Positions 13,621 through 14,722 of a stretch of DNA of 15,879 bases are shown one piece after another (within the stretch, counting starts at the first letter, position 1; each line of letters begins with the position of its first letter). Source of the stretch: a virus. Lineage: Duplodnaviria > Heunggongvirae > Uroviricota > Caudoviricetes. Made by a program: the position numbers and the translations under genes. The notes beneath the pieces are model-generated. The model ran no database searches and was not told the DNA's origin. It saw nothing but the letters and a program-made list of their open reading frames with translations. The stretch lies in the IMG/VR virus record IMGVR_UViG_2872158770_000005. The stretch is one strand, 5' to 3'.

Positions 13621-14682
13621 ATGAGTAAAGTCTTTATTTGCGCCGCCATTCCGGACGAAAAGGCAACAAAAGAAGAAGGCGCTAAACCTGTAGCCACTGC
13701 CATTGAAGCCGGCGACGAACGCCGCGCCCGCGCAAAATTTCACTGGCAATTCCTGGAACATTATCCGGCTGCTCAGGACTGCGCTTATAAATTTATTGTC
13801 TGCGAGGATAAACCTGGTATACCCCGCCCTGCCCTCGATTCCTGGGATGCTGAATATATGCAGGAAAACCGCTGGGATGAGGAGTCTGCTTCCTTTGTCC
13901 CGGTTGAGACTGAATCCGAACCGATGAACGTCACTTTTGACAAGCTGGCCCCTGAAGTACAGAACGCTGTCATGGTTAAGTTCGACACATGTGAAAACAT
14001 CACCGTTGATATGGTGATTAGCGCGCAGGAACTGTTGCAGGAAGACATGGCAACATTCGACGGACATATCGTTGAAGCGTTGATGAAAATGCCAGAAGTT
14101 AACGCCATGTGTCCGGAGATTAAACTGCATGCCATCGGGTGGATTAAGCATAAATGTAAGCCTGGTGCAAAATGGCCAGAAATTCAGGCAGAGATGCGCA
14201 TCTGGAAAAAATGTCGCGAAGGTGAACGCAAGGAAACCGGAAAATACACGTCTGTTGTTGATCTCGCCCGTGCCAGAGCCAATCAACAGCACACTGAAAA
14301 TTCAACAGGAAAAATCAGCCCGGCCATTGCTGCCATTCATCGCGAATACAAGCAGACATGGAAAACACTGGATGACGAACTGGCCTACGCTCTCTGGCCT
14401 GGTGATGTGGATGCCGGAAACATTGACGGCAGCATCCATCGCTGGGCAAAAAATGAAGTTATCGACAACGACCGCGAAGACTGGAAGCGTATCTCGGCAT
14501 CAATGCGCAAACAGCCTGATGCCCTTCGCTACGACCGCCAGACTATTTTTGGCCTTGTCCGTGAACGTCCGATCGACATTCACAAAGACCCTGTGGCACT
14601 GAACAAATACATTACTGAATACCTGACTACAAAGGGCGTGTTTGAAGATGAAGGAACAAATCAGAGCGCAACTGATACTTGA
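13621..14682 (+). CDS. Hypothetical acidic prophage protein (353 aa as it stands); stop codon is the terminal TGA of IS600, so the C-terminus is probably truncated
   Basis: ATG with GAGG SD 10 nt upstream; protein rich in D/E and Cys pairs; the IS600 terminus begins at 14680. Confidence 0.55.
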   Translation: MSKVFICAAIPDEKATKEEGAKPVATAIEAGDERRARAKFHWQFLEHYPAAQDCAYKFIVCEDKPGIPRPALDSWDAEYMQENRWDEESASFVPVETESEPMNVTFDKLAPEVQNAVMVKFDTCENITVDMVISAQELLQEDMATFDGHIVEALMKMPEVNAMCPEIKLHAIGWIKHKCKPGAKWPEIQAEMRIWKKCREGERKETGKYTSVVDLARARANQQHTENSTGKISPAIAAIHREYKQTWKTLDDELAYALWPGDVDAGNIDGSIHRWAKNEVIDNDREDWKRISASMRKQPDALRYDRQTIFGLVRERPIDIHKDPVALNKYITEYLTTKGVFEDEGTNQSATDT

Positions 14683-14722
14683 GGTGTACTGGCAATAGCG
14701 GACACTACCATTTGTTCTTTTT

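Follow-up and report, generated by a model that had tools for sequence, protein, structure and literature searches.

The window, by which we mean the whole stretch of 15,879 nucleotides analysed here, carries near its right-hand end a 353-aa open reading frame (13621..14682, + strand) with an ATG start and a TGA stop, which is preceded by two small coupled genes and followed by a copy of IS600. From 3619 to 15879 the window is 99.97% identical to the chromosome of Shigella sonnei 53G (HE616528.1). The first of the small genes is dicB (13151..13339, +), encoding a 62-aa cell-division inhibitor (PF05358, 124.1 bits against a cut-off of 27) with 87% identity to K-12 DicB over 62 aa. The second is a ydfD homologue (DUF1482; 13336..13527, +) of 63 aa (PF07358, 75.5 bits against a cut-off of 25) that shares 67% identity with K-12 YdfD over 63 aa, and the stop of dicB and the start of ydfD overlap as ATGA. 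A preliminary description of this DNA, made from the letters alone, had given the pair no assignable function, a view that the Pfam matches overturn; both products have published activities, DicB blocking division via MinC/FtsZ and YdfD being a lysis protein that lyses cells on induction (bioRxiv 10.1101/2024.09.21.614188). Directly upstream of dicB lies an IS1 copy (12276..13043, − strand; boundaries approximate, placed from InsA/InsB Pfam matches, repeats and the end of the element as read from the sequence), which interrupts a Rha-family regulator gene and parts the dicB-ydfD-exonuclease block, the third gene of which is identified below, from the upstream early promoter region. At the S. 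sonnei 53G locus the corresponding Rha/ASH gene (7889-8677) overlaps the start of the IS1 genes at 8671. A promoter and terminator scan of 12950-14760 returned no more sites than were found in shuffled sequence.

The IS600 copy, a member of the IS3 family, occupies 14680..15879 on the − strand and comprises the first 1200 of 1264 bp, with 99.8% identity to the annotated IS600 of Escherichia coli 20.1; from 14680 to the window end it is 99.6-99.8% identical to elements annotated in RefSeq as ‘IS3-like element IS600 family transposase’. It includes orfB (14723-15541, −; 272 aa, precomputed Pfam matches rve/HTH_21) and orfA (15577-15879, −; 100 aa, precomputed Pfam match HTH_Tnp_1). The complete element in E. 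coli 20.1 measures 1264 bp between its two junctions, and the window ends 64 bp short of the other IS600 terminus, at the orfA start codon. The end that abuts the ORF lies downstream of the transposase genes and reads TGAGGTGTACTGGCAATAGCGGACAC, while the far end, as found in S. sonnei 53G and E. coli 20.1, reads TGAGGTAGCCTGAGTTTAACGGACAC in reverse complement; by eye 18 of the 26 positions match, a pair too imperfect for the repeat finder, which did not report it. Measured against a typical IS600, a 1264-bp element with TGAGGT...ACCTCA ends and a 3-bp target duplication when simply inserted, the copy in the window presents nothing unusual except that the matching target duplication is absent.

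Identity of the interrupted gene

Of 5,426 complete E. coli genomes, 4,008 contain a nucleotide match to the 1059-bp ORF (80-98% identity), and the matched genes are annotated ‘exonuclease’ or ‘3'-5' exonuclease’. In its form free of insertion sequences (IS-free) the gene is 2472-2481 bp long (823-826 aa). Aligned with residues 1-353 of an 823-aa IS-free allele, the window protein shows 97% identity and no gaps; it corresponds to the first 43% of the protein of about 823 aa. In PHROG 2082, ‘exonuclease’, it matches positions 1-353 of 823 (E 1.2e-267), and precomputed Pfam results for the exact protein give YdfE_N (PF27430) and YdfE_C (PF27432); scanned against a local copy of Pfam-A from which these two models are absent, the 353-aa protein matched no family. 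Homology to the IS-free alleles, to PHROG 2082 and to K-12 YdfE delimits a 5' remnant of the exonuclease gene at 13621..14679 (+), codons 1-353 of about 823. The ORF is 3'-truncated, because the IS-free alleles are 97% identical over residues 1-353 and then continue for some 470 codons past codon 353, to 823-826 aa; about 3,500 E. coli genomes hold IS-free alleles that read past this codon. The truncation had been anticipated in the preliminary description, and the comparison with IS-free alleles that it proposed places the native C-terminus at 823-826 aa.

By sequence homology, the ORF is identified as the 5' part of a RecE-related lambdoid prophage exonuclease gene, the orthologue of the K-12 Qin pseudogene ydfE. 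It had initially been regarded as an uncharacterised protein without assignable function; the PHROG 2082 and YdfE_N/YdfE_C matches, 95% identity to K-12 YdfE and the database record all contradict this, the exact 353-aa protein having already been deposited as ‘exonuclease [Shigella sonnei]’ and being present in many S. sonnei assemblies (152 index blocks). The window copy is accordingly classed as a truncated (pseudogene) member of the PHROG 2082 exonucleases and not as a functional one. The acidic, cysteine-containing character noted earlier does hold, with a pI of 5.19 (mildly acidic), 62 D+E against 47 K+R and seven cysteines; among the alleles compared, C164 and C198 are substitutions found only in the window allele (Y164C, R198C).

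The full-length allele contains a single Pfam-A domain, PF16473 (Rv2179c-like, a DEDDh 3'-5' exonuclease), at residues 642-813 (E 1.8e-67). This domain is missing from the 353-aa product, which has lost residues 354-823. Likewise, in a sequence search of the PDB only the lost C-terminal domain finds a match, chain 8kel, ‘Exodeoxyribonuclease’. With the exodeoxyribonuclease VIII model NF007259, residues 237-626 of the full-length protein align to positions 260-603 and residues 245-342 of the stump to positions 270-368; the scores of 283.1 bits for the full-length relative and 47.7 bits for the stump lie far below the curated cut-off of 1269, and neither is thereby a member of that family. The N-terminal and central part of the intact protein is non-catalytic and partly homologous to the N-terminal region of RecE, and its C-terminus is DEDDh. 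RecE of the Rac prophage shares with the YdfE-type family the homologous central non-catalytic region and an equivalent position in the early-left operon, and its own N-terminal part is dispensable for nuclease activity, its role being likewise unknown (PMC11611040). RecE, however, has RecT as its partner and carries a PD-(D/E)XK 5'-3' exonuclease domain at its C-terminus, whereas the YdfE-type family ends in the DEDDh 3'-5' domain; the PD-(D/E)XK domain is absent from the full-length IS-free allele, which has the Rv2179c-like domain instead. On these alignments the family is a relative of RecE whose nuclease domain is a different one. When 1.84 billion cluster representatives were searched exhaustively, the N-terminal module was recovered in only 172 clusters, the relatives ending either in an Rv2179c-like or in a PD-(D/E)XK (DUF3799) domain.

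Intact copies are found in the sequenced phages mEp460, Tritos, HannyBb and PPompW. In these and in ECO26_1771, all full-length PHROG 2082 exonucleases, residues 1-353 are 89-97% identical to those of the window protein, which differs in being without residues 354-823 and the DEDDh domain. The full-length genes share a slot between dicB/ydfD (or kil) and xis/int: in IS-free loci of lambdoid prophages the gene stands at the end of the early-left operon, with dicB-DUF1482 (or kil) on one side and xis/int on the other. The order in intact relatives, from the repressor onward to dicB-ydfD-exonuclease-xis-int, supports the earlier placement of the ORF in a leftward (pL-type) early operon. At the window locus the upstream side agrees, with dicB and ydfD at 13151-13527, while IS600 and then ynfE stand in place of xis/int downstream. 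In the YdfE-type loci examined, unlike recE-recT or exo-bet, no RecT or Bet gene lies alongside; three intact E. coli loci with DEDDh ‘exonuclease’ genes were inspected for an adjoining RecT- or Bet-type annealase gene and none was seen. Published experiments that address what this 3'-5' exonuclease does in lambdoid phages were looked for and none was found; a literature search on Rv2179c-like phage exonucleases returned nothing relevant.

The closest known counterpart of the stump is ydfE itself (b1577, a pseudogene) in the K-12 Qin prophage, which is the same gene in the same slot, dicB-ydfD-ydfE. The K-12 protein is 95% identical to the window protein over residues 1-257 and then diverges into IS2E. 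In K-12 the gene is cut by IS2E at about codon 257 and the frame runs into the element to give 306 aa, whereas in the window IS600 follows codon 353 with an immediate stop. The window ORF and K-12 ydfE are thus two independent IS-made stumps of one gene. The practical outcome is a corrected annotation, an exonuclease pseudogene in place of an uncharacterised acidic accessory protein.

The IS600 junction and the deletion beyond it

When the junction is aligned with three IS-free E. coli alleles, homology breaks exactly after base 14679: the window runs from ...CAACTGATACT into TGAGGTGTACTGG..., and the IS-free alleles from ...GATACT into CTCTCGTCGCC. Over a longer stretch past 14679 the terminal IS600 sequence given above stands in the window, and the IS-free genes read CTCTCGTCGCCAGTACC.... 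The TGA at 14680..14682 (+) is made of the three bases with which the IS600 terminal inverted repeat begins, so that the proposal that IS600 begins at 14680 and supplies the stop codon of the ORF is borne out by both the breakpoint and the identity of the element. Both IS600 termini, read inward, begin 5'-TGAGGT, and therefore about one third of IS600 insertions into a coding frame would place a TGA directly at the junction; an ORF interrupted in either of the remaining frames would run on for 15 or 6 codons into IS600. That the stop codon is made by the first triplet of the element is an unremarkable coincidence, which carries no weight by itself.

The far side of the element is provided by S. 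sonnei 53G, where IS600 ends ...GGCTACCTCA and is followed directly by ATATGCCGACATTCTG..., which is K-12 ynfE from about nucleotide 1532 (53G locus position 12324). Beyond IS600 there follow the 3' fragment of ynfE, ynfF, ynfG, ynfH, dmsD, clcB, a bioD-like gene and mlc, and this right flank is collinear with K-12 from 1,659,600 onward at 98.9% identity. Missing by comparison with K-12 are intQ', ynfP, rspB, rspA, ynfA, ynfB, speG, ynfC, ynfD and the 5' part of ynfE, and the rest of the exonuclease gene is likewise missing past IS600; K-12 keeps intQ', rspBA, ynfABCD, speG and a complete ynfE downstream, all of which S. sonnei has lost. In S. sonnei IS600 has ACT as its left flank and ATA as its right flank, without a 3-bp target duplication. 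Judged from these flanks and the collinearity, the IS600 copy in S. sonnei is evidently a deletion junction and not a simple insertion, which would explain why no ACT/ACT duplication is seen. It also follows that the native C-terminus is not recoverable from the S. sonnei genome but only from IS-free alleles.

The deletion that removed speG in S. sonnei, together with the right end of the Qin-like prophage, thus has its left breakpoint at the IS600 at 14680. The speG locus has been reported as completely lost in this species (PMC3213128) and is counted among the pathoadaptive losses of Shigella (PMC3213128; PMC7373316), while IS expansion and IS-linked gene loss are documented in S. sonnei (PMC7373316). 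Records already exist for the gene, the K-12 ydfE pseudogene, dicB, ydfD, IS600 and the disappearance of speG from S. sonnei, and what is seen here is ordinary, previously annotated decay of an IS-rich Shigella chromosome. In another S. sonnei genome, CP044151.1, a benE fragment and an IS605-family gene lie beyond the same IS600 copy instead of ynfE, an arrangement that implies a further IS600-mediated rearrangement within S. sonnei.

Four E. coli genomes were matched by a 181-bp probe spanning the junction, whereas an exact-match scan of a collection of genome contigs with the junction sequence gave no hit. In two of them, 20.1 and RM6927, IS600 stands at the identical base as a simple insertion with ACT on both sides. 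The junction in E. coli 20.1 is the same as that at 14679/14680 of the window, and its IS600 (locus 6091-7354) is followed by the remaining 475 codons intact, xis and int; this is presumed to be the precursor state of the S. sonnei locus. RefSeq marks the equivalent IS600-cut alleles of E. coli as pseudogenes, ‘missing C-terminus’.

We propose that IS600 entered the gene directly behind codon 353, with ACT as its target triplet, and that the in-frame TGA at the start of the element stops translation at once. With all 470 downstream codons absent, the nuclease domain included, the product cannot be an exonuclease. The same IS600 copy would later have become a deletion endpoint, through intramolecular transposition or else through recombination with another IS600 copy located in ynfE, an event that may have fused the gene stump to ynfE at nucleotide ~1532. 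Such a deletion would have taken the remainder of the prophage arm, namely the 3' part of the exonuclease gene and presumably xis and int, together with the host genes rspBA, ynfA, ynfB, speG, ynfC, ynfD and the 5' part of ynfE. That the insertion preceded the deletion is deduced from other genomes and not from the S. sonnei lineage itself. As a whole, this account of the locus as the decayed left arm of a Qin-like S. sonnei prophage, with an exonuclease pseudogene truncated by IS600 which then became a deletion junction, is in our view very probably correct.

It is quite possible, though somewhat short of probable, that IS600 reached the identical base independently in S. sonnei and in 20.1/RM6927, the site being an insertion hot spot. 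The other two genomes matched by the probe, E. coli 2013C-4830 and 2012C-4227, speak for such a preference, since they hold an IS600 2 bp downstream (junction ...ACTCT/TGAGG, at about 6093 in the 2013C-4830 locus), which is a separate event; on its far side in 2013C-4830 lies an integrase fragment, another adjacent deletion. The prophages moreover occupy different sites, next to ompW in 20.1 and at the Qin position in S. sonnei, and 8 bp that agree with an internal part of the IS600 inverted repeat (GCCAGTAC) are read from the sequence 9-16 bp downstream of the target, an observation made post hoc with a chance probability that we estimate at roughly 0.03. On the other hand, the window and 20.1 differ at one base in the ~300 bp of the gene that lead up to the junction, compared with 97 differences over nucleotides 40-756, and their IS600 copies are 99.8% identical, so that a single IS-bearing segment moved by recombination would account for the pattern too. 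This mosaic fits either an IS-bearing segment shared by recombination between prophages or an insertion hot spot. A literature search on the target-site preference of IS600 returned nothing relevant.

Fate of the truncated product

The preferred reading of the locus, an IS600-truncated pseudogene, raises the question of whether the stump still does anything, and we think that it probably does not. Compared with five alleles at the nucleotide level and ten at the protein level, the window allele carries nine private nucleotide changes of which six are non-synonymous, a pattern suggestive of relaxed constraint although it comprises nine sites only. One of these changes, Y164C, falls inside an AMYPE motif whose conservation extends to relatives with as little as 25% identity.

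Structure prediction with 24 diverse relatives as input yielded a confident AlphaFold2 model (mean pLDDT 81.2) of three domains: residues ~1-100 form an alpha/beta domain and ~105-205 a helical one, after which a disordered linker (206-245) leads to a RecE-like helical domain (246-340). Foldseek searches of this model gave no match at E <= 0.001 in the PDB and none in BFVD. Structure prediction followed by structural search, as suggested in the preliminary description, gave a confident model and no informative fold relative in either collection.

It is conceivable that the stump has been retained as a stand-alone protein, a YdfE-type module that acts independently of a nuclease, for example by binding DNA ends or a partner, but we consider this improbable. 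The 353-codon frame is intact and has a plausible ribosome-binding site, the model is confident with two folded parts split by the linker, and the module is portable, being joined in relatives to a DEDDh or a PD-(D/E)XK (DUF3799) domain; K-12 also has an analogous truncated copy. The N-terminal part of RecE improves linear-linear recombination in vivo, full-length RecE being superior to its nuclease domain alone (PMC11611040), and a residual non-nuclease activity of the stump is therefore possible. Yet the private substitutions are mostly non-synonymous, with one in a conserved motif, and dicB is separated from the repressor/early-promoter region by two IS1 copies. The block is probably silent, because expression of the adjacent dicB and ydfD is toxic. 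Both K-12 ydfE and the equivalent E. coli alleles carry pseudogene annotations, and S. sonnei is clonal, so that the recurrence of the identical sequence in its assemblies reflects descent and not selection.

A more general proposal is that the YdfE-type module, with its ~100-aa alpha/beta part, helical part and RecE-like helical part, may be a portable adaptor that phages attach to alternative nucleases, that the K-12 and S. sonnei stumps could keep a nuclease-independent activity, such as the binding of DNA ends or of a partner from host or phage, and that, separately, ...GATACT/CT... may be a true IS600 hot spot; we regard this combination as speculative and unlikely to hold. Two small leads do arise, the role of the RecE/YdfE N-terminal module and a possible target preference of IS600 at this site.

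The reading in which the stop is native and IS600 only landed just beyond a complete 353-aa gene has practically no chance of being correct and was rejected: its sole support is that the ORF ends cleanly at the IS boundary, whereas a search for IS-free homologues ending at the same residue found instead thousands of alleles that read through this position for ~470 further codons, and E. coli 20.1 retains the downstream 475 codons directly past IS600, after the ACT duplication.

Other features of the prophage arm

Three IS1 copies are present in the window, at 1-754 (cut by the window start), at about 10263-11030 and at about 12276-13043, the third being the one that interrupts the Rha/ASH-family regulator gene (about 11507-12295) just upstream of dicB. 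Three other S. sonnei assemblies are without the segment of ~2 kb between the second and the third IS1, as expected from IS1-IS1 recombination. Two Rfam families score above their gathering thresholds in this region, isrK at 11559-11635 (+; 61 bits) and C4 antisense RNA at 11661-11748 (+; 77 bits), both at, and overlapping, the 5' end of the Rha/ASH-family gene call, and a weak match to the c4-a1b1 target is found at 11546-11598. The region has the appearance of a P1/P7-type antisense immunity module inside a lambdoid prophage. A match to a DicF-like sRNA at 11264-11312 (+) scores 38.8 bits (E 3e-6), less than the Rfam gathering threshold of 48; the stretch is 84% identical to the K-12 dicF region, and two IS1 insertions part this match from dicB.

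Nearer the left end of the window lies a restriction-modification pair on the − strand (906-1988 and 1985-3817), consisting of a 360-aa BsuBI/PstI-type endonuclease and a 610-aa N6-methyltransferase (N6_Mtase/Eco57I), an assignment taken from precomputed Pfam hits on identical loci. Between this pair and the second IS1 copy, directly downstream of a cI-like repressor gene (8317-8817), a PaaA2/RelB-type antitoxin gene is found with that of a ParE/RelE-family toxin (8837-9031 and 9031-9321, +), and the same arrangement occurs in two E. coli relatives.
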